A stretch of DNA of 64,000 nt from an uncultured Rhizobium sp. (GTDB lineage: Bacteria; Pseudomonadota; Alphaproteobacteria; Rickettsiales; UBA1997), in the NCBI GenBank assembly GCA_964461905.1, contig CAYWVI010000001.1:8783-72782 (forward strand), written 5' to 3'. The notes below the pieces were generated by a model. It saw nothing but the letters and a program-made list of their open reading frames with translations, did no database searches and was not told the DNA's origin. Numbering within the stretch: position 1 is the stretch's first letter; every line of letters begins with the position of its first letter. Positions 12,429 through 49,757 of the stretch are shown here, piece by piece. Position numbers and translations under genes: made by a program.

Positions 12429-12511
12429 TTTTCTTAAAAATTAAATTAAGTTGTAAATACGTCTTTTAGCTCCCTTCTTATGACGGGATCTTTTTATTAT
12501 TTTCTAAATTT

Positions 12512-13231: not shown

Positions 13232-13235
13232 TTGA

Positions 13236-13805
13236 TTAAACTTTTGGTAATGTCACTCCAGTTTGTTTCATGTACTTTCCAGAGCGCATGTCGTAAGAAA
13301 CTTCACAAGGTTGATCACCTTTGAAAAATAAAAACTGACAGGCTCCTTCAAAAGCATATATTTTGGCAGGCAATGGAGTTGTATTTGAAAACTCTAAAGT
13401 AACGTGACCTTCCCAACCAGGTTCTAAAGGAGTAACATTTACAATAATTCCACAACGGGCATAAGTTGATTTACCAACACAAACAACCAAAACATCTTTT
13501 GGAATTTTAAAATATTCAACCGTACGAGCTAAAGCAAAACTATTTGGCGGAATAATACAAACATCAGTTGTACGATTTACAAAACTAGTTTCGCAGAAAT
13601 TTTTTGGATCAACAATTGCCGAGTCAATATTGGTAAAAATTTTAAACTCGTTAGAAACTCGAGCATCATAACCATAAGAAGAGTTACCGTAAGAAATTAT
13701 TTTGTTACCTTGCAAATCAACACGAACCTGTTGTTCTGCAAACGGCTCAATCATTTTTTGATTTTTGACGAGCGCGGCAATTGATTTATCTGAAAGAATT
13801 GACAT
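13236..13805 (-). CDS. dcd: dCTP deaminase
   Basis: 189 aa with [19 protein letters not shown] and [13 protein letters not shown] motifs of the Dcd/dUTPase-fold family. Confidence 0.85.
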
Positions 13806-13844
13806 TGGTTGCTAAAAGAAATTTTGATTTTGATGAGAAGTTTC

Positions 13845-13873
13845 TTGCCTGTAATAAGATGTCTTTTTATAAA
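13845..13873 (+). promoter_or_regulatory. possible sigma-70-type promoter for the CPA2 antiporter gene
   Basis: TTGCCT, 17-nt spacer, TATAAA, 46 nt upstream of the ATG at 13920. Such matches arise easily by chance in AT-rich DNA. Confidence 0.25.
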
Positions 13874-13919
13874 AAATAAATCTCAATTCGCAAATTAAAA
13901 ACTCCTATTTTTTTACAAA

Positions 13920-15674: not shown

Positions 15675-15686
15675 ATTAATTGGGTA

Positions 15687-15722
15687 ACTTTTGGATTGGG
15701 TTTTAGAACACAATCCAAAAGT
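15687..15722. terminator. stem-loop between convergent genes, possible bidirectional terminator
   Basis: Perfect 12-bp inverted repeat ACTTTTGGATTG / CAATCCAAAAGT with a 12-nt loop, between the kefB-like stop (15674) and the popZ-like stop (15742). No strong T-tract. Confidence 0.4.
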
Positions 15723-15741
15723 GCTAATTAAGTGGTAAAAT

Positions 15742-17502
15742 TTATTCTTTTGGAATCATCTTTTTAATCTCTTCTCTAACAACTTTTTCAACCAAGTCTG
15801 GCAAATTATCGTTAAACCATTTTTCAATTTTTGGTTCCATTAAATGCAAAGCTAACTCTGCAAGAGCTGGACTTTGAGAAAAGCTAGAAATTCCAGAAAC
15901 CACATTTTTGGCATCAACTAATTTTTTTACTGAATCACTTACTTGACGAACAGTTGATTCATATTCTTGTGATTTTACTGGCTGACTAACTAGTTTATCA
16001 CTCTCAAATTTTTGCGATTTTTCTTTTTCCATTGGCATGAAATTCATTGTTGGCTGTGCTTTCAATGGCATTGAAGTTTCAGAGGTATTGGCTGAAAAAC
16101 CCATCAACTCTTTTTCAAATTCAAGATCAATTTCATGTTTTTGAATTTGTGGCTGATTTGAGTCTTCAAGTTTTTTATCCCATAAAATTTCTTGCTCTGG
16201 ATTCGAATTAAACCCTAAAGGATCTAATTCCTTAACTTCTTCTTTAGTGGCTTCAAAAACAGTTTGCTGCTCAATTTCTTCATTTTTTACCTGAGCAAAA
16301 ATATCATCTTCTTGCTCAAGATCTGCAAAATCAAAATCATCCTTGGGCATTTCACTAACTGTTTCTTTTTGTAACTCAGATTTTGGTTCCAATTTTTCTA
16401 AAATATCTAAATCTAAATCGTCAATTTTTGGTTCAGGTTGTTTTAAAAAAGATTGTTCTTCAGTTTTTATAGACATCTTATCATCTTCCAAATGAGCATC
16501 AAAAGATGGTAATTCTTTCGACGAACTTTCCATAGTTTGGTTAACTATTTCTTCTTCCTCCTCAAAATTAGGTAACTCTAAATCATCTTCTTCTAAATCT
16601 TCGTCATGATTATCTTCTTCTTGCTCCTCATGATCTTCTTCATGGTATTCTTCAAAACCCTCTTCATCATCTTCATGATCTTCTAAATCTTCATCATGAT
16701 CATCTTCTTCTTGTTCATCATGATCTTCTTCAAAATTCTCTTCTTCATCTTCATGATCTTCTAAATCTTCATCATGATCATCTTCTTCTTGTTCGTCATG
16801 ATCTTCTTCAAAATTCTCTTCATCATCTTCATGATCTTCTAAATCTTCGTCATGATCATCTTCTTCTTGCTCTTCCTGATCTTCTTCATCTTCATGATCT
16901 TCAGAATCCTCTAACAATTCTTCTTCAGACTCTGATTCTGTAACGGAAGAATTAATTGGATTTCCTAGCCAATCAACAGGCCCAACATCTCCTGCCACAA
17001 CTTGAGAAGTTTTGCCACTAACACCATTATCTTCTACCTCAACTTCATCTTCAGATTTTTCAATTTCTGACACATCTAAAACTGGATCAGGCATTACAAC
17101 AGCTCCAGATTCTTTTCTGGCAGGAGGATTAATTGCGGAAGGTGCAAAAGTTTTTTCTTCATTGTCTAAATCTAAATCATCCAAATTAAAATCTTTGAAA
17201 CTTTCAATTCCTGAAGTTTTTTCCGTAGATTTTTTTATTGATAAATCTTTTTTCTCTTCGAATTTTTCAATGTCTATTCCCAAATCATCTTCAAATTTTT
17301 GATCTACAACTGATGCTACTTCTGCCTTAGATTCTACAGCCTTACTTTTTTTATTATCGCTAGAAGAAATATCTTCAAATTCATCTTCTGAATTAGAATT
17401 AACAACGTTTGGAACCTCTTCTTTTTTCTCAGCTTTTTGATCAAGCTTAAGCATTTTTTTCTTGATAGTTTCTAAAATCGAATGAGTATTTTTTTCTGCC
17501 AT
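15742..17502 (-). CDS. PopZ-like (DUF2497-type) polar-organising protein homologue with a greatly expanded acidic repeat linker
   Basis: C-terminus LAELALHLMEPKIEKWFNDNLPDLVEKVVREEIKKM aligns with my recollection of the Caulobacter PopZ C-terminal domain (LEDVVRELLRPLLKEWLDQNLPRIVETKVEEEVQRI). N-terminal helix SILETIKKKM resembles PopZ MEEILASIRRII. The middle is extremely acidic. Confidence 0.6.
   Translation of the reverse strand: MAEKNTHSILETIKKKMLKLDQKAEKKEEVPNVVNSNSEDEFEDISSSDNKKSKAVESKAEVASVVDQKFEDDLGIDIEKFEEKKDLSIKKSTEKTSGIESFKDFNLDDLDLDNEEKTFAPSAINPPARKESGAVVMPDPVLDVSEIEKSEDEVEVEDNGVSGKTSQVVAGDVGPVDWLGNPINSSVTESESEEELLEDSEDHEDEEDQEEQEEDDHDEDLEDHEDDEENFEEDHDEQEEDDHDEDLEDHEDEEENFEEDHDEQEEDDHDEDLEDHEDDEEGFEEYHEEDHEEQEEDNHDEDLEEDDLELPNFEEEEEIVNQTMESSSKELPSFDAHLEDDKMSIKTEEQSFLKQPEPKIDDLDLDILEKLEPKSELQKETVSEMPKDDFDFADLEQEDDIFAQVKNEEIEQQTVFEATKEEVKELDPLGFNSNPEQEILWDKKLEDSNQPQIQKHEIDLEFEKELMGFSANTSETSMPLKAQPTMNFMPMEKEKSQKFESDKLVSQPVKSQEYESTVRQVSDSVKKLVDAKNVVSGISSFSQSPALAELALHLMEPKIEKWFNDNLPDLVEKVVREEIKKMIPKE
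16591..16905 (-). repeat. in-frame 78-nt (26-aa) tandem repeat inside the PopZ-like gene
   Basis: Units 16681-16758 and 16759-16836 differ at only 2 of 78 positions by my comparison. More diverged copies lie at 16591-16680 and 16837 to about 16905. The unit encodes DHDEDLEDHEDDEENFEEDHDEQEED. Confidence 0.85.
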
Positions 17503-17617
17503 TACAAACCCTGTAAAGTGTTGATTTTGCTAGTTTTGGAAACCTATTTATTTTTTATCTCAAATAAAAAACTAAGCCGATTTTTTTACCATCTTGCTAA
17601 AATTACAATCAAATAAA

Positions 17618-19609
17618 ATGAAAAAAGATTACCTAAAAATTTTTATATGGCTCTGCATCGGAATTTTAGGTGCTGCTTCATTTGGTGGAATTGCATTAAT
17701 ACGCGGAGAAAAAATTTCTTCATTATGGTTTATTACAGCTTGTGTTTGCACTCAACTTATTGCTTATCGTTTTTATAGTGCGTGGATTGCAACAAAAATT
17801 TTGCAAGTAAATGAAAATAACAAAACTCCAGCCACAAAAATTAATGATGGAAAAGATTTTGTTCCAACAAATCGCTGGATTGTTTTTGGACATCATTTTG
17901 CCGCAATCGCTGGACCTGGACCATTAATTGGCCCAACTCTTGCTGCACAATTTGGATATTTACCGGGAACATTATGGATTTTAATTGGCTCAGTTTTTGC
18001 TGGCGCAGTTCAAGATTTAATAATTCTATTCGCTTCAATGCGTAGAAACGCAAAATCACTTGGACAATTAATAAAAGATGAAGTTGGAAAAACCTCGGGA
18101 TATGCAGCAATGATTGGAACGTTAGCAATCATAATTATCTTAATCGCTGTTTTAGGCTTAGTTGTTGTAAAAGCTTTAGCGCATAGTCCTTGGGGTTCTT
18201 TTACTGTTTTAATGACCATTCCAATTGCCATGTTGGTTGGTATATACTTATACTACATTCGTCCAACTGGAGTTATTGAAGCAAGTTTAGTTGGCTTCGT
18301 TTTATTTCTCTTGGCTGTTTATGGTGGAAAATTAATTCACTATCACCCTGCACTATCACAAATTTTTGATCAAAGCTCAAAATTCTTAGCAATCGCTGTT
18401 ATTATTTATGGATTTGCTGCCGCCACACTTCCTGTTTGGCTACTTTTAACGCCGCGTGATTATTTATCTTCGTTCTTAAAACTTGGAACAATTTTACTAC
18501 TCGCAATTGCTTTGTTGATCTTTCGCCCTGAAATTCAAATGCCAGCAATAACACAATTTATTGATGGTTCTGGTCCAATTTTTAGCGGCAAAATTTTTCC
18601 ATTTTTATTTATTACAATTGCTTGTGGCGCAATCTCGGGATTTCATGCATTAGTCGCTTCAGGAACAACTCCCAAAATTATCTCTAATGAAAAAGATGTT
18701 CGCCTAATTGGTTATGGAAGCATGTTACTTGAAGGATCAGTTGCAATTATGGCAATGATCGCTGCTTGCGTTTTGCAACCCGGAATTTTCTTTGCCATAA
18801 ATTCACCAGCTGCCGCTTTAGGAAGCGATGCAGCACAAACTATAACATCTTGGGGTTTTCCAGTAACGTCAGAAACCATGAAAGAACTAGCAGCACAAAT
18901 GGGTGAAAACACTTTATTTTCGCGCACTGGCGGCGCGCCTTCTCTTGCTGTTGGCATGGCAACAATTTTTTCATCAGCTTTTGGCAGCAATATGTTATCA
19001 CTTTGGTATCATTTTGCCATTATGTTTGAAGCAATTTTTATTCTTACAACTCTTGATGCAGGAACAAGAGTTGCGCGCTTTATGCTTGAAGATTTACTTA
19101 AATTTCGCGAAAAAAATTTACATAAATCAATTTTAGCTTCTTTGTTTTCTAGCTTCTTAATTGTTGCCGCTTGGGGATATTTTCTTTATATTGGAGTAAT
19201 TGATCCAAGCGGAGGCGTAAATATTTTGTGGCCACTTTTTGGAATGTCGAACCAAATGCTTGCAGGAATTGCATTGGTTTTAGCAACAGTAATAATCTTT
19301 AAAAGTAATCGTAGGAAATATTTTTTTGTTACCGCAATTCCCCTGATTTTTCTTTTAATTACAGTCAGCTGGGCAGTTTTAGAAAAAGTATTTTCTTCTG
19401 ACGTAAAAATTGGTTTTTTCGCTCTAGCAAATTCACTGCAATTTAACCTTGAACATGGTTTGATTTTAGGTGCAGAAAATATTTCAACAGCCAAAAAAAC
19501 TATTTTTAATCAACGCTTAGTTGGAACAATCGCTTTAAGCTTTGCAGCAATTTTATGGATTGTAGTAATTGATGGAATTCGTAGCTGTCTTTTTTTCAAG
19601 AAAAAATGA
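17618..19609 (+). CDS. cstA: carbon starvation protein A family transporter (CstA/BtsT-like)
   Basis: Polytopic membrane protein. Its N-terminus (GIALIRGEKISSLWFITACVCTQLIAYRFY) matches the CstA pattern. Start moved from TTG 17594 to ATG 17618. Confidence 0.88.
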   Translation: MKKDYLKIFIWLCIGILGAASFGGIALIRGEKISSLWFITACVCTQLIAYRFYSAWIATKILQVNENNKTPATKINDGKDFVPTNRWIVFGHHFAAIAGPGPLIGPTLAAQFGYLPGTLWILIGSVFAGAVQDLIILFASMRRNAKSLGQLIKDEVGKTSGYAAMIGTLAIIIILIAVLGLVVVKALAHSPWGSFTVLMTIPIAMLVGIYLYYIRPTGVIEASLVGFVLFLLAVYGGKLIHYHPALSQIFDQSSKFLAIAVIIYGFAAATLPVWLLLTPRDYLSSFLKLGTILLLAIALLIFRPEIQMPAITQFIDGSGPIFSGKIFPFLFITIACGAISGFHALVASGTTPKIISNEKDVRLIGYGSMLLEGSVAIMAMIAACVLQPGIFFAINSPAAALGSDAAQTITSWGFPVTSETMKELAAQMGENTLFSRTGGAPSLAVGMATIFSSAFGSNMLSLWYHFAIMFEAIFILTTLDAGTRVARFMLEDLLKFREKNLHKSILASLFSSFLIVAAWGYFLYIGVIDPSGGVNILWPLFGMSNQMLAGIALVLATVIIFKSNRRKYFFVTAIPLIFLLITVSWAVLEKVFSSDVKIGFFALANSLQFNLEHGLILGAENISTAKKTIFNQRLVGTIALSFAAILWIVVIDGIRSCLFFKKK

Positions 19610-19779
19610 AAAAAATTTGGGCTTTTTTAAAACTAGTTATTAGCTATTTAAACGGCAATTTTGCTTATCAAAATTATCTTAAAATTCATAATCAAAATCA
19701 CCCAGAAATAGTGCCGATGAATCAGAAGAATTTTTTTAGAGAAAGAACCAAAAATAAAAAAATTAACCGCTGCTGTTGA
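19606..19779 (+). CDS. YbdD/YjiX-family small protein (DUF466), CstA-associated
   Basis: 57-codon ORF absent from the supplied track. Translation: MKKIWAFLKLVISYLNGNFAYQNYLKIHNQNHPEIVPMNQKNFFRERTKNKKINRCC. Shows the family hallmarks Y..Y..H...HP...PM...FFRER and a terminal RCC. ATGA overlap with the cstA stop. Confidence 0.7.
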   Translation: MKKIWAFLKLVISYLNGNFAYQNYLKIHNQNHPEIVPMNQKNFFRERTKNKKINRCC

Positions 19780-19840
19780 CATTGAAGGGTGCTTCTTAAA
19801 TGATTAATCAATCTCTTTTTAAGTATTTTTAAAAAAACAC

Positions 19841-21190
19841 ATGTCACAAAACTGGAAAGCTAACTCTTGGCGAAACTTACCAATAAAACAGCAGCCGATC
19901 TACGAAGATCAAAATTTATTAAAACAAACTGAACAACAACTAAAAAATTTTCCACCACTTGTTTCATTCGATGAAATTGAAAAATTAAAATCAGAATTAG
20001 CTTTGGTAACAGAAGGAAAAGCTTTCTTATTACAAGGTGGCGATTGTGCTGAAAGCTTTGCTGAATTTTCTCACGATAATTTAAAAAATTTCTTTCGTAC
20101 CGTAATGCAAATGACCATCGCGTTAATGCATGGTTTAAATAAGCCAATTGTAAAAGTTGGTAGAATTGCTGGGCAATATGCAAAACCCCGCTCCGACAAT
20201 AGCGAAACAATTGACGGCATAACAATGCCAAGCTATCGCGGCGATATTGTAAACAAAATTGACTTTGAACAAACTGCCAGAATTGCTGATCCTAAACGTT
20301 TAATTGAATCTTATTTTTATTCTGCCGCTTCGCTGAATTACTTAAGATCGCTAGCACTTGGCGGCTATGGAAATTTAGAAAAAGTTAATAAGTGGAATGA
20401 AGAATTTGCTCACAGCTTAGTTAGCAAAGAAAATACCGAAAAAGTTATTGAAGAAGTAAATAAAAATTTACGTTTCATTAAAGCTTGTGGTCTTGATTCT
20501 AGCTCTTTGCCACAATTAACAACTGCCAGCTTTTTTACTTCGCACGAAGCTTTGCTTTTAAATTATGAGGAAGCTTTTATTCGCGAAAATAAAGATAATA
20601 AAAAATTCTACGATTTAAGTGCGCATATGCTGTGGATTGGAGATCGCACACGCAACCCAAATGAAGCTCATGTTGAATTTATGCGTGGCATAAGCAACCC
20701 AATTGCTTTTAAAGTTGGACCTTCAATTTCAAAAGATGATTTACTCAAACTTTTAGAAATTTTAAATCCAAATAATGAAGCTGGTCGAATTACTCTAATT
20801 TCTAGAATGGGTGCCTCAAAAGTTGAACAAACTTTACCACCTTTAGTTGAAGCAGTGAAGTCTTCAGGGCAAAAAGTGATTTGGTCTTGCGATCCAATGC
20901 ATGGCAACACAATCAAATCTTCAAACGGTTATAAAACGCGTAAGTTTGATGATATTTTAAGCGAAATTAAAACCTTCTTTAAAGTTCATAAAGACCTTGG
21001 AACATATGCTGGCGGAGTTCACTTTGAGATGACTGGACAAGATGTGACAGAATGTTTAGGCGGAAATCAGCAAATCACCGAGCTAAATTTACAAGATCGC
21101 TACCATACTCATTGCGACCCAAGATTAAACTCTTCGCAAAGTGTTGAATTAGCATTTATGATTGCTCAAGATTTAGCCTCAATAAAATAA
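19841..21190 (+). CDS. 3-deoxy-7-phosphoheptulonate (DAHP) synthase, class II
   Basis: 449 aa, the class II (plant-like) length and pattern: GGDCAESF, RIAGQYAKPRS, CDPMHGN. Confidence 0.9.
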   Translation: MSQNWKANSWRNLPIKQQPIYEDQNLLKQTEQQLKNFPPLVSFDEIEKLKSELALVTEGKAFLLQGGDCAESFAEFSHDNLKNFFRTVMQMTIALMHGLNKPIVKVGRIAGQYAKPRSDNSETIDGITMPSYRGDIVNKIDFEQTARIADPKRLIESYFYSAASLNYLRSLALGGYGNLEKVNKWNEEFAHSLVSKENTEKVIEEVNKNLRFIKACGLDSSSLPQLTTASFFTSHEALLLNYEEAFIRENKDNKKFYDLSAHMLWIGDRTRNPNEAHVEFMRGISNPIAFKVGPSISKDDLLKLLEILNPNNEAGRITLISRMGASKVEQTLPPLVEAVKSSGQKVIWSCDPMHGNTIKSSNGYKTRKFDDILSEIKTFFKVHKDLGTYAGGVHFEMTGQDVTECLGGNQQITELNLQDRYHTHCDPRLNSSQSVELAFMIAQDLASIK

Positions 21191-32398: not shown

Positions 32399-32485
32399 GC
32401 CTCTGTGGCGGAATTGGTAGACGCGATAGACTCAAAATCTATTGTCCCTTGGGACGTGTCCGTTCGATTCGGATCGGAGGTACCA
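32399..32485 (+). tRNA. tRNA-Leu (anticodon CAA), class II with long variable arm, CCA encoded
   Basis: Hand-folded cloverleaf. Acceptor stem GCCTCTG/CGGAGGT; D arm GCG...CGC; anticodon stem ATAGA/TCTAT with loop CTCAAAA; variable stem GTCC/GGAC; T arm GTCCG-TTCGATT-CGGAT; discriminator A followed by CCA. Confidence 0.93.
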
Positions 32486-32502: not shown

Positions 32503-33300
32503 GTGCTTCACTTAGCAGATCTTTTCAAAGCGATTATTTTAGGAATTATCGAAGGATTAACGGAGTTTATTCCTGTTTCATCTACAGCCCATCTTCTTAT
32601 CTCTTCTTATTTAATTGATTTTCAAACCATCAAAAATGGAATTTTTGAAATTGTTATTCAAGTTGGCGCAATACTTGCAATCTGCGTAATTTATCGAGCA
32701 AAAATTTTTTCAGTTATTTGCAATCTTAAACAAAAACCTCAGCAAGAATTTACTATTAATCTAATTTTAGCATTTCTACCAGCTGCAATACTTGGTGTTA
32801 TTTTTCATAAAATCATAAAAGAAATTCTCTTCTCAAACTTTGTAATTGCGATCAGCTTAATTATTGGCGGAATTATTATTATGATTGTTGAATTGCGACC
32901 TCAAAAATCAAAAATCAAAACTGTTGAAGAAATAAAACCAATCAATGCTTTTAAAATTGGTTTATTTCAATCACTAGCAATGATTCCCGGTGTTTCTAGG
33001 TCTGGTGCAACAATTATTGGCGGATTGTTACTTGGCATGAATCGAAAAACCGCTACTGAATTTTCTTTTTTTTTGGCAATTCCAACAATTGCCGCTGCAA
33101 GTTTTTATGATCTGATTAAAAATTATTCTGAGCTAACAACATCAAATCTTGAACTTATTTTGGCTGGATTAATTTCAGCCTTCATATCAGCAATCTTGGT
33201 AATTAAGTGGTTTATTAATTTTGTTAGTAAGAACAATTTTTTTGTTTTTGCGATTTATCGTATCATTGTTGGGATCGCCATTTTGATTTTTATTTCTTAA
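32503..33300 (+). CDS. uppP: undecaprenyl-diphosphate phosphatase
   Basis: GIIEGLTEFIPVSSTAHL and PGVSRSGATIIGG motifs. I use GTG 32503 as the start because the tracked ORF start (32449) lies inside the tRNA. Confidence 0.85.
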   Translation: MLHLADLFKAIILGIIEGLTEFIPVSSTAHLLISSYLIDFQTIKNGIFEIVIQVGAILAICVIYRAKIFSVICNLKQKPQQEFTINLILAFLPAAILGVIFHKIIKEILFSNFVIAISLIIGGIIIMIVELRPQKSKIKTVEEIKPINAFKIGLFQSLAMIPGVSRSGATIIGGLLLGMNRKTATEFSFFLAIPTIAAASFYDLIKNYSELTTSNLELILAGLISAFISAILVIKWFINFVSKNNFFVFAIYRIIVGIAILIFIS

Positions 33301-33306
33301 ACAAAC

Positions 33307-34437
33307 ATGCAACAAGAAAAATTCGCCATCAGATTTGGACTTGGAGCTATTAAAGCCGTAGGTTTTAATATGATGGAAAATGCTGTTGAAGAACGAAAAA
33401 ACAATGGTGAATTTTCTGATATTTATGATTTTGCACAACGTTTAAACCCTCGCTCAATTAATAAAAAGTCAATCGAGGCTTTAGCCAAAGCGGGAGCTTT
33501 TGACTCTTTAGAAAAAAATCGTCGTCAAGTTTCAGAATCTTTTGATATTTTATCTGCCTACTCAACAGAAAAAAATGAAGAAGCAAATTCAAATCAAATG
33601 AGTCTTTTTGGCGGCTTGGCTGAAGCGCAAAAAAAACCCGAATTAAAAAAGATTTCTAATTGGAACAAATCAGAACGTTTGCAAAAAGAATTTGAAGCTT
33701 TTGGATTTTTTTTAAACGAACACCCAATTGATGATAATTTATCTGAATTAAGAAAACGCGGCGTAATTTTTTCTGATAAACTTGAGCGTGATGAATTAGA
33801 GGATGGTGATTTAGTAAAAATGGCAGGAGTTGTTGCTGGAAGCAAACATCGCTCAGGACCTCGTGGACGTTTTGCTTATTTAACAATTTCTGATCCTTTG
33901 GGAATTTTTGAAGCAATGATTTTTGATGAAGGATTAATCACTTCAGCACGAGATATTTTAATTGATGGCAGCGTTATTTTGTTGGAATGTTTAATAAAAA
34001 AAGATGATGGCGGAGTTAGAATTTTGGTGCGTGAAGTAAAAAGATTAGAAGATTTTATTCAAAATACCAAAGCTCAAGATAAGGATTTTGAAGACATAAA
34101 AAAACAACCGCAAAGAAATTATAATCGCAACAAAGATGCAAATTTTGCTAAAAAAGAATCCACTCCCAATAAACAAGTTGAAGTTGCGCCAATAAAAAAA
34201 GTTCTTTCAAAAGTAGAAATTTTTATCAAATCAAGAGAACCAATTTTTAGCATTAAAGCCTTTCTTTCTCAACGTTTATCAAGTAATGACTCTGCAATCA
34301 CTACCTCTGTTTTTTTTGCAATAATTGATGGTCAAAAAATTACTAAAGTTGAGTTGCCTCAAAAATATCTTCTTGATGAATTTGATGTTTCAAAGCTTGC
34401 TCAAATTAATAAAGTGATTGATGTAAAATCACTTTAA
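33307..34437 (+). CDS. dnaE: DNA polymerase III alpha subunit, C-terminal third only (HhH, clamp-binding motif, OB fold, C-terminal domain); stand-alone fragment or gene remnant
   Basis: IRFGLGAIKAVG (HhH region), QMSLFGG (internal beta-clamp-binding motif), EFEAFGFFLNEHPID, and OB-fold VKMAGVVAGSKHR...RFAYLTISD are collinear with roughly the last 345 residues of E. coli DnaE. A stop lies two codons upstream of the ATG, and no PHP, palm or fingers part is in the window. Confidence 0.8.
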   Translation: MQQEKFAIRFGLGAIKAVGFNMMENAVEERKNNGEFSDIYDFAQRLNPRSINKKSIEALAKAGAFDSLEKNRRQVSESFDILSAYSTEKNEEANSNQMSLFGGLAEAQKKPELKKISNWNKSERLQKEFEAFGFFLNEHPIDDNLSELRKRGVIFSDKLERDELEDGDLVKMAGVVAGSKHRSGPRGRFAYLTISDPLGIFEAMIFDEGLITSARDILIDGSVILLECLIKKDDGGVRILVREVKRLEDFIQNTKAQDKDFEDIKKQPQRNYNRNKDANFAKKESTPNKQVEVAPIKKVLSKVEIFIKSREPIFSIKAFLSQRLSSNDSAITTSVFFAIIDGQKITKVELPQKYLLDEFDVSKLAQINKVIDVKSL

Positions 34438-42448: not shown

Positions 42449-43828
42449 ATGAAATATGTTGTTTACGGTCTTGGAATTTCTGGAATTGCCACGGCAAAAT
42501 TTTTAATCACCCATGGCGAAAAAGTTATTGCCACTGACGACAATTTAAAAGTAGTTGAAGATTCAAAAGAGAAATTTCCAAACATAGATTTCTTAAATCC
42601 AGAAGAAATTGAATATGATTCAAGCACCGTAATAAGCCTCTCTCCGGGAATTCCCTTATATTTTCCAAAACCTCATAAAGTTTTAGAAATCGTTAGAAAA
42701 ACTGGCGCAAAACTTTCTTGCGATATAGAGATTTTTTATAAAAAAAATTCTCAAAATAACTTCATCGCAATTACAGGAACCAACGGCAAATCAACAACAA
42801 CCGCATTATCTGGTTTTATTTTTAAAGAATTAGGAATTGCCTCAGACATTGGCGGAAACATTGGAGTTCCTTGCTTTGACTTACCTCAAAACCAAAATAA
42901 TTTTTCTTATATTTTTGAAACTTCTTCTTATCAGCTCGACCTACTTAACGAAACTCACTTTAAAATCGCAGCACTTTTAAATATAACTCCCGATCACATT
43001 GATCGACACGGATCAATTTCTGGATATATCGAAGCTAAAAAAAGAATTTTTAGAAATCAGACTTTGGGAGATTTTGCTTTAATTGACGTTGATAATGAAA
43101 ATTCAAAAAAAGTTTTTGATGAATTAAAAAATGACAAAAACTTTCGCGCCACTCTTGTTCCAATTTCAACAAATAAAATTCAGGAAAATGGAATTTCGCT
43201 TGTTGAGGGAATTTTAGCCAACAACATTTCTGGCTCTAAATCGCAATTTGAGTTAAAATCAGATTTTTTGCGCGGTCAGCACAATGATCAAAACATGGCT
43301 TTTGCTTTTGGAATAGCCTATTGCCAATCTCTTTTTCAAAAAGAATTCCAAGAAACAAAAATTATTTCTGCCATAAAAAAATTCAAAGGATTGCGCCATA
43401 GAATGCAGCTACTTGGAGAAATTGATGGCATAAATTTTGTTAATGACAGCAAAGCAACAAACGCCGAATCAACCGAAAATGCTTTAAAAGCTTATGATAA
43501 TATTTTTTGGATTTTGGGCGGAGTTCAAAAAGAAGGCGGAATCAAAAGTTTAGAACCTTATTTTAATAAAATTCAGAAAGCTTATTTGATTGGTCAGGCA
43601 AGCGATGAATTTGCAAAAACTTTATCAGCACATTCTGTAAATTTTGAAAAATGCACCGATTTAAACACCGCTTTTAAAAAAGCTTTTTTGGATGCAAAAA
43701 CAATTAGCTTATCTCAAAAAAATATTTTACTTTCGCCAGCCTGCGCATCATTTGACCAGTGGAAAAACTTCGAACAGCGCGGTGATTACTTTTGCAAATT
43801 ATTTGATGAAGTTTACCCAAAATCTTAA
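42449..43828 (+). CDS. murD: UDP-N-acetylmuramoylalanine--D-glutamate ligase
   Basis: Mur ligase P-loop ITGTNGKSTT, DSKATN motif, 459 aa. No other dcw-cluster genes are adjacent. Confidence 0.9.
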   Translation: MKYVVYGLGISGIATAKFLITHGEKVIATDDNLKVVEDSKEKFPNIDFLNPEEIEYDSSTVISLSPGIPLYFPKPHKVLEIVRKTGAKLSCDIEIFYKKNSQNNFIAITGTNGKSTTTALSGFIFKELGIASDIGGNIGVPCFDLPQNQNNFSYIFETSSYQLDLLNETHFKIAALLNITPDHIDRHGSISGYIEAKKRIFRNQTLGDFALIDVDNENSKKVFDELKNDKNFRATLVPISTNKIQENGISLVEGILANNISGSKSQFELKSDFLRGQHNDQNMAFAFGIAYCQSLFQKEFQETKIISAIKKFKGLRHRMQLLGEIDGINFVNDSKATNAESTENALKAYDNIFWILGGVQKEGGIKSLEPYFNKIQKAYLIGQASDEFAKTLSAHSVNFEKCTDLNTAFKKAFLDAKTISLSQKNILLSPACASFDQWKNFEQRGDYFCKLFDEVYPKS

Positions 43829-46800
43829 CAAAATAACAGTTTCAAAAAAAGTATTAAAACGCTTAACCATTTTTTGCGCTTTATCTTTGGGAATTTTTGC
43901 AATTTTTCACGCTCCAAAAAATCTCTCTTCTGCAACATTAAATTATGATTGCGCTCTTCTTGCTGATAATGTTACTGCTGCTCCCGGTTCAAACTGTCTT
44001 TTTAGCGCAATGTCAAAAGATGGTTCAAATGTTTTGCCTTTATGCCGAGAAATTCCTTCTGTTAACTATACAATATCATCTGACAATATTTTACTAAATG
44101 GCGTTAGAAGACATACATGCTCTAACTTAAGCGACTTACCACTTTGCTCAACTTTTAGGGATAGTAGTAATAATTTAACCACTTCAGTTGAGCCAAAAGC
44201 TGGAAAAAATTGTGCTCCTCTTTGCGATAATAGCTTTAATGGAAGCGGAACAAGAGGAGTTGATTATGCAATTCATAATCGTGATTGCATAAGATTTTGT
44301 GATGCCATGGAAGCCGGAACAGAAAGTGCTAATCCAAATATAAATTGTGTTGATCGCAAATGTCATCAGCTTGCAAGTGGAACAACACCAGTTCCAGACA
44401 CCAATTGTTCTTTAATGCCATGTAATCTTCTAACACCATCAGAATTATCAAATGTATCTAAGAGAATTTATGACGACAAAATAGCTGCAAGAACAGTTGG
44501 TAAATACTGTGAAGGACAAACTGACATCTACAACTCACCTCTAAAATGCTATAAATTTAACAAAGATCAGCTTGATTACGTTGTTTTGCCAGAAATTTGT
44601 TCTATACATAACTGCCCTCCTCCATGCGAAAATTATACTTCAAATATTGATACAGATGGAGATGGCTTAATCAATCAATATGACAATGACGAAACTTTAA
44701 ATATTTCTGATCGCAATAGAGATGGTGTTACAGATAGTGATAACAGTTACAGAGAAAAATACAAAACAACGGTAAATGCAGGCTACGAGCTAAACTCAAC
44801 TTCTTATTGCAAGCCAATTTACTGCAAACCAGTAATAAAAAAACAATATCGCTGTGTTAATAATAACGGAGAAATCACAGGAAATAATAACAATGATATA
44901 TATAGAAATAGTAACTGCGATTCATCTGGAGATGGAGCATTATGCGCAAGTAATCTTTGCTATAAAACCATTGATTGCAACTTATCATCAAATGATAACA
45001 AGCCTGAATGTTATGTAGCAGATGATGGATCTATTGGCTCCACCGAAGATACTGTAAATTCATGGTTTTACCGTCCGAGACCATTACATAAAGCAACAAG
45101 AGTTTCTGGATCTGTGCGATTAATAGAAGACATGGAAAGAGGACTTTGCTATACGCAAAACCAGATGAAATCTAGGCGCGATAATTTTGACAATGGTGAA
45201 GCTTTTGACAATGGACGAGGCTCAACATCTGAAGATGGAAAATGGGGTTTAGATATGACAATTAGAATTCCGCTTGGACCAGGTCTTGGATCAATTATTA
45301 TACCTATTGGTTGGTTTCATAGCACATTACTTCCTGATGAAACCAGATCTCCAAAAGCATGCGGAGTTGAAGAAGTAAATACACGTGGAACTGGTTACAT
45401 GTATTTATGCTATGGAGATGGTAATCCTAATTCAGGAACTCTCTATGCCAAAGTTGCAGATCACACAGTTTTTCATAGCGGATATATCAAAACATCTTTC
45501 TCAGAAGGAGATGCAATACATAAGCTTAACCTTTGTTTTAGATTTAGAAACTCTTTTAGACCAGATGATGGCACTTCAGAAACCTGTGGTTCTAGACAGT
45601 GTGGAATTTCTTATGCATTTGGAGAAGGAACCACACAAAACTGCGGATTAGATAGGTGCTTTGATCTGGAGATTTCAGATTCAAATCCAGCCGAATGCGA
45701 AATGGATAGCACTATTTCTGAAGGTGATAGAAGTAGAAGATGTATGAAAACTTATGATACTTATCTAAGACTTAGAATTCAAAAATATGGCAATCGTAAA
45801 ATATGCAGCTTTTTGGATGTTAAAGGACAAACAGCTTATGATAATGGAAGCTCTGCTAGTAGCTTATTTATGAAAGGATCTGAGAAATTTTCTGATGGAT
45901 CTTGTGTTATTGGATCAAAAAGTGGTTCTGGAAATTGTTCTGGATTTAGTAGCTATACAGATCCAACTTTAGCAGAAGTATGGCGCACAATCAAATTTGG
46001 ATCATCTGGCAATATACCATACATTAAAAATAACCAAGTTGATAGTAATGGAACTCAATTACCTGGAAATCTAAAAGGATATTTTGATTTAGAAGGACAA
46101 TTCTTTCCAGAACAAGAATGTATTTATGCCCCACTTCGTACCCCTCCTCCTAGAATATATAATCTTGCTACAATTAACAACTCTACCCGACTTTTTACCC
46201 CTCCAGTTTATATATTAAATGCCATGACTAAAGCTGGATCTGGATTAATATCTCCTAGAGGTTTTGGTGAAAGTTTTGGAGTAACAGATTTTAATTACCC
46301 AGCAATTCAGGTAAATTTTGGCAACACAACTTCTGAAATCAGCCTAGATGCTGGAAAAACTGGCTATGAAGAAAATAGAACTATCAAAACTCTAACCACA
46401 ACAGCTAATCAAAATAATTACTCTGTAAATGTCTTCGTTCGCAAAGAGTTTAACGAAAGTAGCAAAAAACCAACTTTTTGTCTCTATCGCCAAGTAATAG
46501 ATATTAATGGTGTTGAAATTAGACCCGAAAGAATTGGCTGTGTTGAAAGAAAATTACCTGAAATTTACAACTCAACAACTCAACAAAAAGCTGTTATTTA
46601 TCTTGATCCTTCAAGCACATTCAACAGCTCAAAAATTGCCATAAAATTTATGGCTGGATTTGGAGCTGATAATATTGATAGCAACTGTCTTGCTGGAAGT
46701 GATGATATATGCAGCCCTGCAATTAAATTTGAAAATCCAAATTCAACTGTTCCAAATTGCAATTCTGCAATAGTTGATCCTACCGACCTAACAACAATCT

Positions 46801-49757
46801 CTCCTGAAATGTATAATCTTTGCGCAAAACGCGAAGAATGTAGTCAATTAAATGTTGAATGCATGCAAAATGAGATCGACCTACAAGCAGCCAGAGTTGC
46901 TGGTAATAGTGTAGATTCTTATTTAACAGTACGCGATCGTTGCAACAACTTCTTACTCCCTTTATGTAATGCCAAAAAAGGAATCACTGGTCTTGGCGGC
47001 ACATTAACTAATCCAAATCCAAATAACGAAGTTATAAGCCCAACAGCTTATGGATGGTTTAATGAAATTTGCTTTATTTCGGGAGACACAACCAACAGCT
47101 TTGATTCTCATTTAAAACAAGTGTTAGCTTATAAAACCAGTCCAGAAGGTGTTAAAGGAAAATGCATTACAATTGAAGGAGCAAACCAATGTCCAAATGG
47201 TGGTAAAGCTCCAAATTGTAATTGTATTATAGCTAATGAGAACACAGTTATTGATGCAGATAAAGAAGTAAGAACTCAAACTAATAGAGAAGCTGGATTA
47301 TGTGTTGATATGCCTCTACCGCAAACCTGTTCAGCAATAGATTATAACCCTCTTTCAACAATTCCAAGTGACCCTGAGTACTTATACTCATCTCTCAATT
47401 TTACCTCTTACGGCGCAACTCAAAATAATGTAAATAACGTTGTTCATATCTCTCATCAAACAAGAAAAAATGCGACTTCAAATGGCAATGCTGAATTTCC
47501 CATTGCTATTCTTGGCTCAGTTAACATTTCAGGAGCTTGTAATGGTTTTTGGAAAAATAGCATTTCACCTACTACAGGAATTGCCACTCCACCAACAAGA
47601 ACTTGCTTAAATAACAATGGTAACGCTGTTTGGGATACATTAGTAAACAATCCTTGCATCAGATATTCATGCGAAGCAAAAAATACTACAGGAGCAGAAT
47701 CAGAAATAATTGGAGCTAACTATCAAGGCGGTTATGCATCAACTGAAGTTGGAGATAATAAAGGTTCTGCAGATGGATTTGCAACTTGGCCAACATTAAC
47801 AAAAACAACGGATTTTCCAGAAAGTGCCAACGCAATATCTTGCATTCCGGGATTTAAAAAAATTGGATCAACAGCTACAACTTCTGGCACACCAATTAAT
47901 ACTTATCAAACCCAAATAAATGGATATTCTGGAGGAACAACACCAACCAGAGCATGCAATCAAGTTGGTGCTTGGCAAACTCCTGTTAACTCTTGTCAAA
48001 GAATAACTTGCCCAGCTATCAATCCACCAAGCAATCCCACCACTTCTGCTGATTGGGTAAAATGGTACGATGCTGGAGGAGCAAATTATCCACAAACCAA
48101 TGCTTCTAGAAGCACTTCATCTGGAATAGTAGCAATTGGAACGTGCAACACCTCTCTTGGCTTTTATAATCTTGGCGACCCACCAACTCGCAGATGCGAT
48201 TATCTAGGAAATTGGGGTCCAGTTGTTAATCCATGCACTACAAAATGCGATGCAATAACCGCGCCATTTGCCTCTGGATCAAATAACGGTAACGCAACTT
48301 GGGCAGAAACAATTATACCAAATGGATCAGTTGAAGTTGCTGGAACATTTGGTCAATGCCTTAATGGATATGTTCCTTATCCTTACCCACCACTAAAAAA
48401 TAAATATGGAAAATCTTATGATTTTGCACTCGGCAGCATCACAAATTACAGCGTTCCTGGGGTAAACCTAGTTGCTGGATCAGCTGATTACGTAAATTCA
48501 ATACCTCTTGATGTTTCATTAGATGGAACTCAAACCGGAAGAACACCCGGAAATCCAGTTAAATATTGTCGAGCAGTAAGTCATGACGGCATCGTTGTTA
48601 ATAATTGGGCAGCAGCTAATTCTTCCTGCATCGCTGGCTGCCCCGGATATGGGGATGATCCAAGAGTTGGGGTTGGTGTCACTCAACATCCAACAAGAAA
48701 TGGTAAAATTAGCATTAAATGGCCAAATGCAGAATTTGGAACTTGGTATTACATCAGCAGTAGTGACACCATTGGAACTCCAGATTTAAACACTGCAGAA
48801 TTTTTTGGACAAACAGCTGCCGATTTCTCCGAAGGTAGAACCAACAATTCTTATTTACTTGCCAGATTCTGTGGTGATGGAGTTAACAATGGATCAGTAA
48901 AAGGAAAATGGAATGATCCGGTTCCGCAATGCGTTACAAATGGCGGCATTATAACTCAAAATGGAGTTAGCAGTCATGCAACTTATGATACTAGCAGCCC
49001 TCGCAATGGTGTACCGGGTACAGCATCAAAAACCGTAAATATTGGTGACACAGCAACATCAACAACTTGTAGAACAGATGGCAGCTACTACCCTACAGGA
49101 AGCAACACTACTCCTGTCGCAATATCAAGCTATCAATGTATTTACAAATCTGGTAGTTCTAACATTGATGAAATCTATTTTCATCAAGTTGGGGGATCAC
49201 CATGCCAAGTTTATTGCCGACCTCCAGCTAACGATGCTCTATTCAATAATAGCAAATATACTGGAACCCCTGCCGCTCCACAATATACCCAAGTTGGTGG
49301 AACTCTAAATCTTGGCGGATGTCAAAATGGCTATGGCAAAGCGAATGATTCTGACCCAAACACATCTGATAGCTCTTGTGGCAGAAGTAATACTAACAGA
49401 GGTGCCACACCAGTTGTGACCTGTAAAGATAGTGGGCTTTTTGGAGATGTTCAAAATAATTGCACAGCTTGTGCAAATTGCACTGGTGCCGCAGCTGATA
49501 TTTTGTATAATCGCGTTTGTATACGCATAAATTGCAGCGGAGATGATGACCAAGTATTTATGATAAATGACGATAACCGAGCTGATTCTGGTTGTGGAAA
49601 CCCTGGTGATACTACTCTTAAAGTCAATTTTGGTGATTGTAACCATAATCAAACTGGTTGTAGTAGAACATTTACTGGAAATCAGTGTAAACATGCGAAG
49701 CTTGAATATTCATGCAAAGATGGACTGATGTCGAAAGATGTTTTTGAAGCTTATTAA
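43806..49757 (+). CDS. giant secreted cysteine-rich protein (about 1,983 aa) with a TSP3-like Ca-binding stretch and sushi/CCP-like C-terminal modules; function unknown
   Basis: Uninterrupted 6-kb ORF. I use ATG 43806, since the tracked start at 43692 lies inside murD. Sec-type N-terminus KKVLKRLTIFCALSLGIFAIFHA. About 93 Cys by manual count, and no other hydrophobic segment. Confidence 0.8.
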   Translation: MKFTQNLNKITVSKKVLKRLTIFCALSLGIFAIFHAPKNLSSATLNYDCALLADNVTAAPGSNCLFSAMSKDGSNVLPLCREIPSVNYTISSDNILLNGVRRHTCSNLSDLPLCSTFRDSSNNLTTSVEPKAGKNCAPLCDNSFNGSGTRGVDYAIHNRDCIRFCDAMEAGTESANPNINCVDRKCHQLASGTTPVPDTNCSLMPCNLLTPSELSNVSKRIYDDKIAARTVGKYCEGQTDIYNSPLKCYKFNKDQLDYVVLPEICSIHNCPPPCENYTSNIDTDGDGLINQYDNDETLNISDRNRDGVTDSDNSYREKYKTTVNAGYELNSTSYCKPIYCKPVIKKQYRCVNNNGEITGNNNNDIYRNSNCDSSGDGALCASNLCYKTIDCNLSSNDNKPECYVADDGSIGSTEDTVNSWFYRPRPLHKATRVSGSVRLIEDMERGLCYTQNQMKSRRDNFDNGEAFDNGRGSTSEDGKWGLDMTIRIPLGPGLGSIIIPIGWFHSTLLPDETRSPKACGVEEVNTRGTGYMYLCYGDGNPNSGTLYAKVADHTVFHSGYIKTSFSEGDAIHKLNLCFRFRNSFRPDDGTSETCGSRQCGISYAFGEGTTQNCGLDRCFDLEISDSNPAECEMDSTISEGDRSRRCMKTYDTYLRLRIQKYGNRKICSFLDVKGQTAYDNGSSASSLFMKGSEKFSDGSCVIGSKSGSGNCSGFSSYTDPTLAEVWRTIKFGSSGNIPYIKNNQVDSNGTQLPGNLKGYFDLEGQFFPEQECIYAPLRTPPPRIYNLATINNSTRLFTPPVYILNAMTKAGSGLISPRGFGESFGVTDFNYPAIQVNFGNTTSEISLDAGKTGYEENRTIKTLTTTANQNNYSVNVFVRKEFNESSKKPTFCLYRQVIDINGVEIRPERIGCVERKLPEIYNSTTQQKAVIYLDPSSTFNSSKIAIKFMAGFGADNIDSNCLAGSDDICSPAIKFENPNSTVPNCNSAIVDPTDLTTISPEMYNLCAKREECSQLNVECMQNEIDLQAARVAGNSVDSYLTVRDRCNNFLLPLCNAKKGITGLGGTLTNPNPNNEVISPTAYGWFNEICFISGDTTNSFDSHLKQVLAYKTSPEGVKGKCITIEGANQCPNGGKAPNCNCIIANENTVIDADKEVRTQTNREAGLCVDMPLPQTCSAIDYNPLSTIPSDPEYLYSSLNFTSYGATQNNVNNVVHISHQTRKNATSNGNAEFPIAILGSVNISGACNGFWKNSISPTTGIATPPTRTCLNNNGNAVWDTLVNNPCIRYSCEAKNTTGAESEIIGANYQGGYASTEVGDNKGSADGFATWPTLTKTTDFPESANAISCIPGFKKIGSTATTSGTPINTYQTQINGYSGGTTPTRACNQVGAWQTPVNSCQRITCPAINPPSNPTTSADWVKWYDAGGANYPQTNASRSTSSGIVAIGTCNTSLGFYNLGDPPTRRCDYLGNWGPVVNPCTTKCDAITAPFASGSNNGNATWAETIIPNGSVEVAGTFGQCLNGYVPYPYPPLKNKYGKSYDFALGSITNYSVPGVNLVAGSADYVNSIPLDVSLDGTQTGRTPGNPVKYCRAVSHDGIVVNNWAAANSSCIAGCPGYGDDPRVGVGVTQHPTRNGKISIKWPNAEFGTWYYISSSDTIGTPDLNTAEFFGQTAADFSEGRTNNSYLLARFCGDGVNNGSVKGKWNDPVPQCVTNGGIITQNGVSSHATYDTSSPRNGVPGTASKTVNIGDTATSTTCRTDGSYYPTGSNTTPVAISSYQCIYKSGSSNIDEIYFHQVGGSPCQVYCRPPANDALFNNSKYTGTPAAPQYTQVGGTLNLGGCQNGYGKANDSDPNTSDSSCGRSNTNRGATPVVTCKDSGLFGDVQNNCTACANCTGAAADILYNRVCIRINCSGDDDQVFMINDDNRADSGCGNPGDTTLKVNFGDCNHNQTGCSRTFTGNQCKHAKLEYSCKDGLMSKDVFEAY

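Follow-up and report, generated by a model that had tools for sequence, protein, structure and literature searches.

A separately encoded C-terminal module of DnaE1 in a mostly freshwater Rickettsiales-affiliated clade, probably the product of one of two genes for DNA polymerase III alpha

Why would a bacterial genome carry an intact gene for only the last third of its replicative DNA polymerase, and where is the remainder? The question is raised by an open reading frame (ORF) at 33307..34437 on the forward strand of the window, by which we mean the whole 64,000-nt stretch of DNA that was analysed. The ORF encodes 376 amino acids from an ATG start with no internal stops. The initial annotation described it as an intact reading frame restricted to the last third of DnaE, a description that was borne out: the helix–hairpin–helix (HhH) region, the clamp-binding motif, the OB fold and the C-terminal domain (CTD) could all be located. 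The PHP domain and the polymerase core are missing from the ORF, as had been claimed; Pfam gives no such domain in the 376 residues. The locus comprises the following features.

32399..32485, forward strand: tRNA-Leu(CAA), identified with ARAGORN, first member of the conserved tRNA-Leu-uppP-dnaE(C) unit
32503..33300, forward strand: uppP (undecaprenyl-diphosphate phosphatase, BacA); Pfam BacA E=4e-81, NCBIfam equivalog 348 bits against a cutoff of 262
33298..33309, forward strand: uppP/dnaE(C) junction, consisting of the TAA stop, a 6-nt spacer and the ATG
33307..34437, forward strand: dnaE(C), encoding on its own the C-terminal module of a probably split Pol III alpha (DnaE1), 376 aa
33322..33336, forward strand: FAIRF (residues 6–10), second strand of the fingers/HhH beta-hairpin in intact DnaE
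33322..33528, forward strand: (HhH)2 duplex-DNA-binding domain (residues 6–74); Pfam HHH_6 PF14579, E=1.2e-22
33595..33609, forward strand: putative internal beta-clamp-binding motif QMSLF (residues 97–101), of the Qxx[LM]F type
33814..34041, forward strand: OB fold (residues 170–245); Pfam PF01336, 28.6 bits against a cutoff of 27
34117..34194, forward strand: variable linker (residues 271–296), pLDDT <50, length-variable and unaligned in the family
34204..34434, forward strand: C-terminal domain (residues ~300–376), alpha/beta fold, pLDDT 82–90

Several comparisons place the ORF within DnaE1, and the match far exceeds chance expectation. IRFGLGAIKAVG occupies residues 8–19 and QMSLFGG residues 97–103. 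The best NCBIfam match, the DnaE1 equivalog PRK05673, aligned residues 5–357 with model positions 821–1125 of 1146; its score of 190 bits stays below the cutoff of 1002 because the ORF contains only one third of DnaE. A DnaE2 identity was rejected on the basis of the lower score of the error-prone model PRK05672 (79 bits versus 190 bits for the DnaE1 equivalog), and no imuA- or imuB-like neighbours were present in any gene context examined. A family profile of the C proteins aligned with E. coli alpha from residue 831 onward. In this profile alignment QMSLF falls on E. coli alpha 920–924, which we take to be the internal clamp-binding site, and S95, Q97 and F101 are invariant across a 20-sequence family alignment of C proteins; the motif is thus retained as a putative clamp-binding site. 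An AlphaFold2 (AF2) model of the C protein has helices at residues 12–62, corresponding to the HhH region, and a five-strand barrel (pLDDT ~90) with OB-fold structural matches in the OB region. Residues ~300–376 correspond to a putative tau-binding CTD of the DnaE1 type. Using Foldseek, the whole C protein (372–378 columns), these residues included, was aligned to Taq alpha (4IQJ, alpha–tau_c–DNA) and E. coli alpha (5FKU), with low global TM-scores (0.4–0.5) because the domains are flexibly linked. Judged by its sequence, the ORF is a subunit-like fragment of DnaE1, not DnaE1 by itself. A tblastn search with an N-half protein revealed no PHP domain or polymerase core in the 64-kb window; an 828-aa ORF at 4656–7142, which has the right size for the N part, is topoisomerase I.

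The gene lies in a compact and conserved unit. The upstream order given in the initial annotation (mltA, tRNA-Leu and uppP) was confirmed, the tRNA being tRNA-Leu(CAA), and the uppP stop (TAA, 33298–33300) is indeed in frame, two codons (ACA AAC) ahead of the dnaE(C) ATG. The BacA and NCBIfam uppP matches both begin at residue ~21 of the uppP ORF and the UppP proteins of relatives have 263–265 aa; uppP likely starts at the GTG at 32503 rather than at the mechanically assigned TTG at 32449, which overlaps the tRNA. When the region downstream of uppP was compared in relatives, the C gene was found to adjoin uppP there too. In 64 of 72 species loci, at most 10 nt separate the uppP stop from the earliest in-frame ATG of dnaE(C), or the two overlap by 1–4 nt (ATGA in locus L011), and dnaE(C) is probably translationally coupled to uppP. 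The same tRNA-Leu(CAA) gene was found immediately 5′ of uppP-dnaE(C) in 23 of the 27 related loci checked. A scan around the unit yielded 7 promoter-like sites (9.9 expected in shuffled sequence) and no terminator.

The same observations bear on whether the uppP/dnaE(C) junction is an assembly chimera or a rearrangement peculiar to one strain beside the tRNA, a breakpoint of the kind initially considered. Such an origin could be suspected because the window lies on a contig of metagenome type and rearrangement and integration often take place at tRNA genes. However, the tightly spaced junction recurs in 64 of the 72 species-level genomes, which come from many independent assemblies, and was found in 61 further metagenome contigs; independent assemblies retain the tRNA-Leu-uppP-dnaE(C) unit at identities as low as 47%; and the closest relative (86% identity) shows full synteny on 14 contigs. 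We consider an artefactual or strain-specific junction to have a negligible probability.

The C protein belongs to a family of stand-alone proteins. Its 120 best homologues are all stand-alone (373–406 aa, 61–86% identity), and in a representative set of 1.84 billion proteins the stand-alone block (359–414 aa, ≥262 bits) outranks the first full-length DnaE (32–36% identity). Among the 192 GTDB species loci that were matched, the best 80 were examined, and all 80 contained intact C ORFs of 362–449 aa with an in-frame stop ≤46 codons upstream of the gene; in the intact DnaE control, the upstream in-frame stop was 903 codons away. A metagenome search likewise yielded intact C ORFs of matching length in the 80 loci kept of 154 matched. 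The dN/dS ratios of dnaE(C) against two orthologues were 0.095 and 0.094, those of ten neighbouring genes ranging from 0.02 to 0.13, and the 20-sequence C family alignment contains 49 invariant columns, functional motifs included.

These data separate the two states that had been envisaged for the fragment, a very recent remnant and a maintained stand-alone protein. Split or degraded genes are common in reductive Rickettsiales genomes, and the AT-rich, Rickettsiales-like character of this genome and the presence of only one third of the gene would fit the decay of a disrupted dnaE. Against this, dN/dS equals that of the neighbours, the reading frames are intact in the species and metagenome loci above and the invariant columns persist. 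Relaxed selection, which would have marked this copy as decaying, was not found; the purifying selection resembles that on neighbouring housekeeping genes and points to a maintained protein. On the grounds of dN/dS, intact ORFs in relatives and clade-wide retention, the identification as a pseudogene was rejected, and a decaying remnant is highly improbable.

A matching family of ~830-aa proteins in the same clade has the domains that the C protein lacks (PHP, palm, thumb and fingers). When the N-terminal part of an intact sister DnaE served as the query, many proteins of 829–843 aa were retrieved that carry PHP, DNA_pol3_alpha and finger domains, with HHH_6 absent; they were found on contigs of up to 884 kb. 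The 120 best matches to one such N protein were all 816–845 aa in length, and the catalytic motifs PDFDxDF, KFDFLGL and GPGRGSGAGS are kept in 140 of 140 N proteins. The usual gene context is ompH-dnaE(N)-mfd. The two families are complementary: on the closest intact sister, P0322 (1,234 aa), N covers residues 3–838 and C residues 860–1213, and in the junction alignment N stops after AYFxVEKI and C opens at KFAIRFGLG, only a variable loop being missing. The predicted N and C products thus tile intact DnaE1 without overlap or loss of a domain.

This complementarity weighs on the earlier proposal of an accessory or decoy role for the C protein, with a dnaE duplicate as its source; in this reading it would compete for the clamp or tau with a full-length DnaE encoded elsewhere in the same genomes. 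The clamp-binding motif and the CTD are kept in C, as a decoy would require. However, the same clade contains a family of N-only proteins from which precisely the C module is missing, which makes no sense if a full-length enzyme is also present. None of the 240 best matches to either half is a full-length DnaE, and the closest full-length DnaEs, 65% identical in the N part and 41% in the C part, fall outside the N family in a clade of their own. The proposal gained no support, and we regard it as very unlikely.

The position of the split was further characterized on structural models. In an AF2 model of the intact sister P0301, strands 822–827 and 841–846 flank a lower-confidence loop; the split is located in this loop, that of the beta-hairpin between the fingers and HhH. 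N proteins end 0–4 residues past the last homologous strand (aligned members), and C proteins have only 4–17 residues ahead of the first. FAIRF of the C protein aligned with strand 841–846 of P0301, and residues 1–14 of the isolated C model have pLDDT <50; we propose from these models that FAIRF is the docking strand for the N half. In both halves Pfam gave no domains beyond the expected ones, and no intein or Hint domain in either, indicating that the halves are not spliced and that the protein stays as two chains.

The N and C genes share a contig in three species (L011/L093, L039 and L085). In L011/L093 the order is uppP-C-N-mfd, with the TAA stop of C directly followed by the ATG of N; in L039 the two genes are divergent, and in L085 they are 7.7 kb apart. 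A comparison of N and C contigs of equal size gave only two matches, one of 17,855 bp that was confirmed and one of 115,518 bp, on which basis we infer that P0401 (N) and L029 (C), both on 115,518-bp contigs, are paired in one genome. A metagenome scan centred on the partner of a known N protein added 80 C loci, among which no new N/C pairs were found. The C gene immediately precedes N in only one of ~160 loci, and this adjacency may be secondary. The genome from which the window derives presumably carries its N gene outside the 64-kb window. Among the explanations initially offered for the fragment, a genuinely split dnaE is the one that accounts for a complementary ~830-aa family that ends where C begins and shares a contig with it in three species.

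Taken together, the data mark the ORF as one half of a two-gene DnaE1 whose products most likely reassemble non-covalently, a reading to which we assign a probability of roughly 85%. A large clade of mostly freshwater bacteria, affiliated with the Rickettsiales and including the GTDB family UBA1997, shares the split, which suggests that the replicase operates there as two polypeptides. An ancestral dnaE would have been broken in the hairpin loop between the fingers and (HhH)2, near E. coli residues 825–830. The catalytic aspartates and the PHP, palm, thumb and fingers domains would have stayed with the N gene (~830 aa), and HhH, the clamp-binding motif, the OB fold and the predicted tau-binding CTD with the C gene. 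The C gene would be expressed from the tRNA-Leu(CAA)-uppP-dnaE(C) unit, presumably by co-transcription with uppP. FAIRF, the first strand of C, would then most likely pair with AYFxVE, the last strand of N, rebuilding the hairpin, and the two-chain alpha would be tethered to the clamp and the clamp loader through the C chain.

Alternatively, both halves may be functional without forming a stable complex, N serving as a minimal polymerase core that perhaps reaches the clamp through epsilon, and C as an independent clamp-, tau- and DNA-binding factor, for example a detachable adaptor. The location of the N and C genes in different operons in most genomes would suit such independence, and the lack of structure in the N-terminal strand when C is modelled alone is compatible with a free tail. 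However, both hairpin strands are strongly conserved (AYFxVE in N; AIRFGLGAIK, nearly invariant, in C), which is hard to explain unless the strands still pair. In E. coli Pol III, the internal clamp-binding motif and the tau-binding domain are needed for processive, coupled replication, and N alone has neither. We therefore consider independent action of the halves unlikely and favour their reassembly into one alpha.

The split may have arisen once. In a neighbour-joining (NJ) tree the N family is monophyletic (40 of 40 bootstraps), but in the C-side tree six very divergent stand-alone members are not grouped as one clade with the rest, so that the N-side NJ tree is the main basis for a single origin. 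None of uppP, ompH and mfd was found near the intact sister dnaE genes L007, L095 and L096. Candidate routes for the fission would be a tandem duplication with reciprocal loss, or a dispersed duplication or translocation.

To our knowledge, bacterial Pol III alpha is taken to be a single chain. As a documented exception we found only the cyanobacterial dnaE, whose product is re-joined by a split intein, and we found no published description of an intein-free two-gene DnaE1. Two large surveys of family C polymerases dropped fragments without an active site and used complete genomes (PMC3919608, PMC12926913), filters with which a clade known only from metagenome-assembled genomes could not have been seen. 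NCBI records list the C protein as ‘hypothetical protein’ and give the name ‘DNA polymerase III subunit alpha’ to the N protein of 830 aa; completeness and marker-gene pipelines that expect one DnaE of ~1,150 aa may misjudge genomes of this clade. The clade also offers a natural test of whether processive, coupled replication depends on covalent attachment of the OB fold, the clamp-binding motif and the predicted tau-binding domain. UBA1997 bacteria are abundant epibionts of freshwater cryptophytes (bioRxiv 10.1101/2023.01.31.526412), and the clade overlaps with these epibionts, so that material for metatranscriptomic or biochemical tests exists. A bolder version, which we hold to be doubtful, is that the replicase is permanently two-chain throughout the clade, that C is an exchangeable clamp-, tau- and DNA-binding module held only by beta-strand complementation and that uppP-C-N-mfd, seen in one lineage, is a surviving intermediate of the duplication and permutation route by which PolC has been proposed to derive from a DnaE-type ancestor. 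If so, the polymerase could do without a covalent link to the elements that confer processivity and coupling, and a detachable C subunit could permit regulated exchange or another core stoichiometry at the fork.

When N and C are read together, the domain order is the same as that of canonical DnaE1 (E. coli 5FKU, Taq 2HPI/4IQJ). Canonical DnaE1 is, however, one chain with a connecting hairpin loop, whereas here the loop is deleted and the protein is cut between the fingers and HhH into two polypeptides, usually encoded at separate loci. Cyanobacterial DnaE-N and DnaE-C (Synechocystis/Nostoc; Wu et al. 1998) are described in PMC5054071 and PMC3919608 as split-intein halves that are trans-spliced to one chain. 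Like the halves reported here, they are described as the products of two genes at separate loci, with a C piece that contains HhH, OB and CTD, and the NCBIfam model of that piece (PRK07373) also matches the dnaE(C) ORF. The cyanobacterial halves bear intein halves, in contrast to the two halves of this clade, neither of which has intein sequence, and the split site differs: our ORF starts at around position 111 of 449 in PRK07373, ~105 residues further downstream. Natural splits that lack inteins are described in PMC3061061 for the family B polymerases Methanothermobacter PolB and gp43 of some T4-like phages; that account reports that activity is restored from the products with no covalent bond between them and that several of the splits lie in or near the fingers. 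There, too, two gene products tile an intact replicative enzyme; PolB and gp43 belong to family B, whereas dnaE(N) and dnaE(C) belong to family C and part the catalytic core from the module that binds the clamp and the clamp loader. PolC, finally, has been proposed to originate by ‘duplication with circular permutation’ (Timinskas et al. 2014, PMC3919608). Its OB module is N-terminal to the core, and in L011 the C gene (HhH-OB-CTD) lies directly 5′ of the N gene; this C-N order, if fused, would give a permuted architecture. The genes are unfused, however, and HhH accompanies the OB module in this clade, unlike in PolC, where it still follows the fingers.

The dnaE(C) gene encodes only the C-terminal third of the DNA polymerase III alpha subunit, as the initial annotation had claimed for this intact 376-aa ORF. 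The ORF and the domains of its product (C protein) are as follows:

33307–34437, + strand: dnaE(C) ORF, ATG start, 376 codons, zero internal stops
C-protein residues 6–74: DnaE helix-hairpin-helix (HhH) domain PF14579 (Pfam, E = 1e-22)
C-protein residues 170–245: OB fold (Pfam)

Residues 8–19 of the C protein are IRFGLGAIKAVG and residues 97–103 are QMSLFGG. Residues 5–357 are collinear with positions 821–1125 of 1146 in the DnaE1 equivalog PRK05673 (NCBIfam), at a score far under the whole-protein cutoff because two thirds of DnaE1 are missing. In a family-profile alignment, the match to E. coli alpha begins at residue 831, and QMSLF falls on E. coli residues 920–924, the internal clamp-binding site. 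Structural comparison of the AlphaFold model (mean pLDDT 80; first 14 residues low-confidence) with Taq and E. coli Pol III alpha gave matches to their C-terminal parts along the whole C protein (372–378 aligned columns). The in-frame uppP stop two codons before the ATG was confirmed (TAA, 33298–33300), as were the upstream genes mltA, tRNA-Leu (tRNA-Leu(CAA), 32399–32485) and uppP. No polymerase-core sequence was found in the 64-kb window (tblastn, N-half protein as query); the 828-aa ORF at 4656–7142, considered as the missing N-terminal part, was rejected as topoisomerase I. C proteins are named 'hypothetical protein' by NCBI, as opposed to DNA polymerase III alpha subunit by JGI.

The best 120 homologues among 5.8 billion proteins were all stand-alone (373–406 aa, 61–86% identity). 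HMMER, run exhaustively over 1.84 billion cluster representatives, recovered a separate stand-alone block (359–414 aa, ≥262 bits), below which scores fall to full-length DnaE at 32–36% identity. Scanning one genome per species in GTDB yielded 192 C loci, the best 80 of which were counted in detail. All 80 belong to metagenome-assembled genomes (MAGs) labelled Rickettsiales or Alphaproteobacteria, mostly lake-derived, and all 80 carry an in-frame stop ≤46 codons 5′ of the homologous region (ORFs of 362–449 aa); an intact-DnaE control left 903 codons open in this test. The nearest relative (86% identity) shows full synteny with the window (ychF, mltA, uppP, dnaE-C, rsmD, pheA, pgsA, xseB, purF, slt), and its arrangement is present on 14 contigs, which argues against the rearrangement or assembly breakpoint considered earlier. 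Nor is selection relaxed: dN/dS was 0.095 and 0.094 against two orthologues (ten neighbouring genes, 0.02–0.13), and a 20-sequence alignment of the family has 49 invariant columns, among them the clamp-motif positions S95, Q97 and F101. With dN/dS of ~0.09, like that of its neighbours, and stand-alone genes at 80/80 loci (best 80 of 192), the proposal of a very recent remnant fails. Thus, dnaE(C) is neither an artefact nor a remnant.

A search with residues 1–844 of P0140, the closest intact DnaE then known, retrieved ~50 intact DnaEs of 'Rickettsiales bacterium' MAGs (single-chain sisters), followed by a large family of 829–843-aa proteins (N proteins) with 100% query coverage. These contain PHP, DNA_pol3_alpha and DNA_pol3_finger and lack HHH_6; their genes lie on contigs of up to 884 kb and so are not shortened by contig ends. 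When the N protein P0329 served as query, the best 120 matches were all 816–845 aa (76–84% identity) and included no intact DnaE. In 140/140 collected members both catalytic motifs, PDFDxDF and KFDFLGL, are kept, and a direct Pfam scan of the N protein detected the three expected domains only and no intein. Mapped on P0322 (1234 aa), the intact sister nearest to them, the N protein covers residues 3–838 (65% identity) and the window C protein residues 860–1213 (41% identity). In the joint alignment, N proteins end just past the strand AYF(S/T)VEKI and C proteins begin at (E)KFAIRFGLG; the sole missing piece is a variable 15–45-residue loop that links both strands in every intact sister. The AlphaFold model of the intact sister P0301 (pLDDT 85) has these junction segments as beta-strands (822–827 and 841–846), with a lower-confidence loop between them and the HhH helices after them.

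The two genes also share contigs. GCA_964580715.1 (L011) carries tRNA-Leu, uppP, dnaE-C, dnaE-N and mfd in that order on contig CAZOKU010000034.1, with uppP and C overlapping by ATGA and the N ATG directly after the C stop TAA. C and N are divergent neighbours in L039, and N lies 7.7 kb 3′ of C in L085; the N protein P0401 and the C gene of L029 come from contigs of identical length (115,518 bp) and are probably encoded on one contig. Elsewhere, N sits within a conserved ompH–dnaE(N)–mfd segment, with ftsA and ftsQ on the opposite strand, and the ompH–N linkage extends to the deep-branching L085 lineage. At the N loci L012, L013, L094 and L011, mfd (transcription-repair coupling factor) begins 1–55 nt 3′ of N and ompH lies 5′ of it, and three of the four have ftsA–ftsQ–ddl downstream on the opposite strand; at L087, mfd lies ~2 kb 5′ of uppP–dnaE(C) with no N gene before it.

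The complementary N family, the exact tiling and the shared contigs bear out one of the explanations first offered, a genuinely split dnaE with its N-terminal part encoded elsewhere, and we consider it probable (about 0.85) that dnaE(C) is one half of a two-gene DnaE1. N and C proteins together tile DnaE1, meeting at a hairpin loop with no intein and with hairpin strands conserved on both sides; the chains therefore probably pair non-covalently into a two-chain alpha, in which all clamp and tau contacts would fall to the C chain. Stable association of N and C is somewhat less certain than the gene assignment. Distance-based neighbour-joining trees of the N region placed the N-only proteins, those of the L085 lineage among them, in a clade excluding all 71 intact DnaEs (40/40 bootstraps); on the C side, a core clade (31 of 37 sampled) was monophyletic in 40/40, and the other six, very divergent stand-alone proteins, did not join it as one resolved clade. 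The simplest reading would be a single ancient fission. Had this proceeded by tandem duplication and reciprocal loss, a C–N order would be predicted; this order was found only in L011, 1 of ~160 loci. The neighbours of the three intact sister dnaE genes inspected are unrelated.

Immediately 5′ of the C gene lies uppP, in ~70 of 80 species loci (best 80 of 192) and 61 of 80 additional metagenome loci (80 of 154 matches). The junction downstream of uppP, which the initial annotation had singled out for comparison, is the same in most relatives (gap ≤10 nt, or 1–4 nt overlap, in 64 of 72 species loci). Of 27 loci inspected, 23 have tRNA-Leu(CAA) in front of uppP, including lineages with only 47% identity to the window, and the flanks beyond this trio vary from genome to genome; this points to an old and stable tRNA-Leu–uppP–dnaE(C) unit. 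The spacing suggests co-transcription and translational coupling of uppP with dnaE(C); a promoter/terminator scan around the unit gave 7 promoter-like sites, against 9.9 expected from shuffled sequence, and no terminator. Coupling is not obligatory, since 0.65–1.6 kb of extra genes separates the two in one subclade (L016, L018, L019, L020 and L023 from GTDB; L097, L099 and L102 from metagenomes; ~69–73% identical to the window C protein). Within the L020 insert lie a 154-aa ORF (8795–9259, +) and, on the other strand, a 205-aa ORF (9333–9950). Mechanical calling starts uppP at TTG 32449, overlapping tRNA-Leu (32399–32485); family models match only from residue ~21 and the in-frame GTG 32503 gives a relative-like 265-aa product, so the start is likely GTG 32503. 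The most divergent stand-alone C genes (44–47% identical, some marine) lack uppP upstream (L163, a TARA_B110000259 scaffold; L165, L171, L172, L176, L089, L092; and L085, with a COQ9-like gene upstream of C), and so these lineages may have lost the uppP linkage, or it may be younger than the split.

Other features were seen around these loci. tRNA-Met(CAT) lies just 3′ of dnaE(C) in L006 (11781–11857), L018 (11290–11366), L046 (11236–11312) and L048 (11328–11404); the window has none there, and rsmD converges on dnaE(C) instead. In L001/L002 (a genome with ~1-Mb contigs), an island at 12148–21065, ~1 kb 3′ of dnaE(C), encodes a tyrosine integrase, an AbiEii toxin/DUF6088 pair, an HTH_17 protein and a Toprim/DUF3987 primase-like protein. 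The window contains dnaA (60790–62232, ~27 kb from dnaE(C)), so a replication origin is probably near its 3′ end. It also encodes a 1055-aa autotransporter (7571–10738) and a 2021-aa ORF (43692–49757) with zero Pfam matches at E ≤ 0.001; the start of this ORF and the end of one for a MurD-like Mur ligase (42449–43828) share 137 nt. MAG titles such as 'Rickettsia typhi', 'Rhizobium sp. Q54' and 'uncultured Rhizobium sp.' (L016, L031, L035, L041, L014, L022 and others) are evidently pipeline artefacts and were given no weight.

UBA1997, a freshwater Rickettsiales family (bioRxiv 10.1101/2023.01.31.526412), includes at least one genome found here (L065); the preprint says nothing of the polymerase. 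An intein-free dnaE split is absent from both large surveys of C-family polymerases (PMC3919608, PMC12926913); one dropped fragments that lacked an intact active site, and the other covered complete genomes only and discarded truncated sequences. Full-text literature on split dnaE, within an incomplete coverage, consisted of intein papers only. Given this silence, and with the same caveat on coverage, we regard the intein-free two-gene dnaE as a variant of a known enzyme that has not been described before. Two intact sister DnaEs, P0276 (1368 aa) and P0139 (1163 aa), have an apparent second OB-fold segment after the first (P0139 was hit in two stretches; P0276 has visibly repeated OB-like sequence), and a duplicated OB is a minor variant in the 2014 survey (PMC3919608). 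That survey also proposed that PolC arose from a DnaE-type gene by duplication with circular permutation (PMC3919608), which makes the C-before-N operon of L011 noteworthy; the likeness is only partial, since the HhH moves with the OB module in this clade. Cyanobacteria likewise encode DnaE in two genes, but each half bears part of a split intein and splicing joins them into one chain (PMC5054071, PMC3919608), and the cyanobacterial split site lies ~105 residues further upstream (NCBIfam model comparison). Naturally split, intein-free family-B polymerases resemble the present case in forming an enzyme from two gene products, and theirs reconstitute (PMC3061061 and work cited there).
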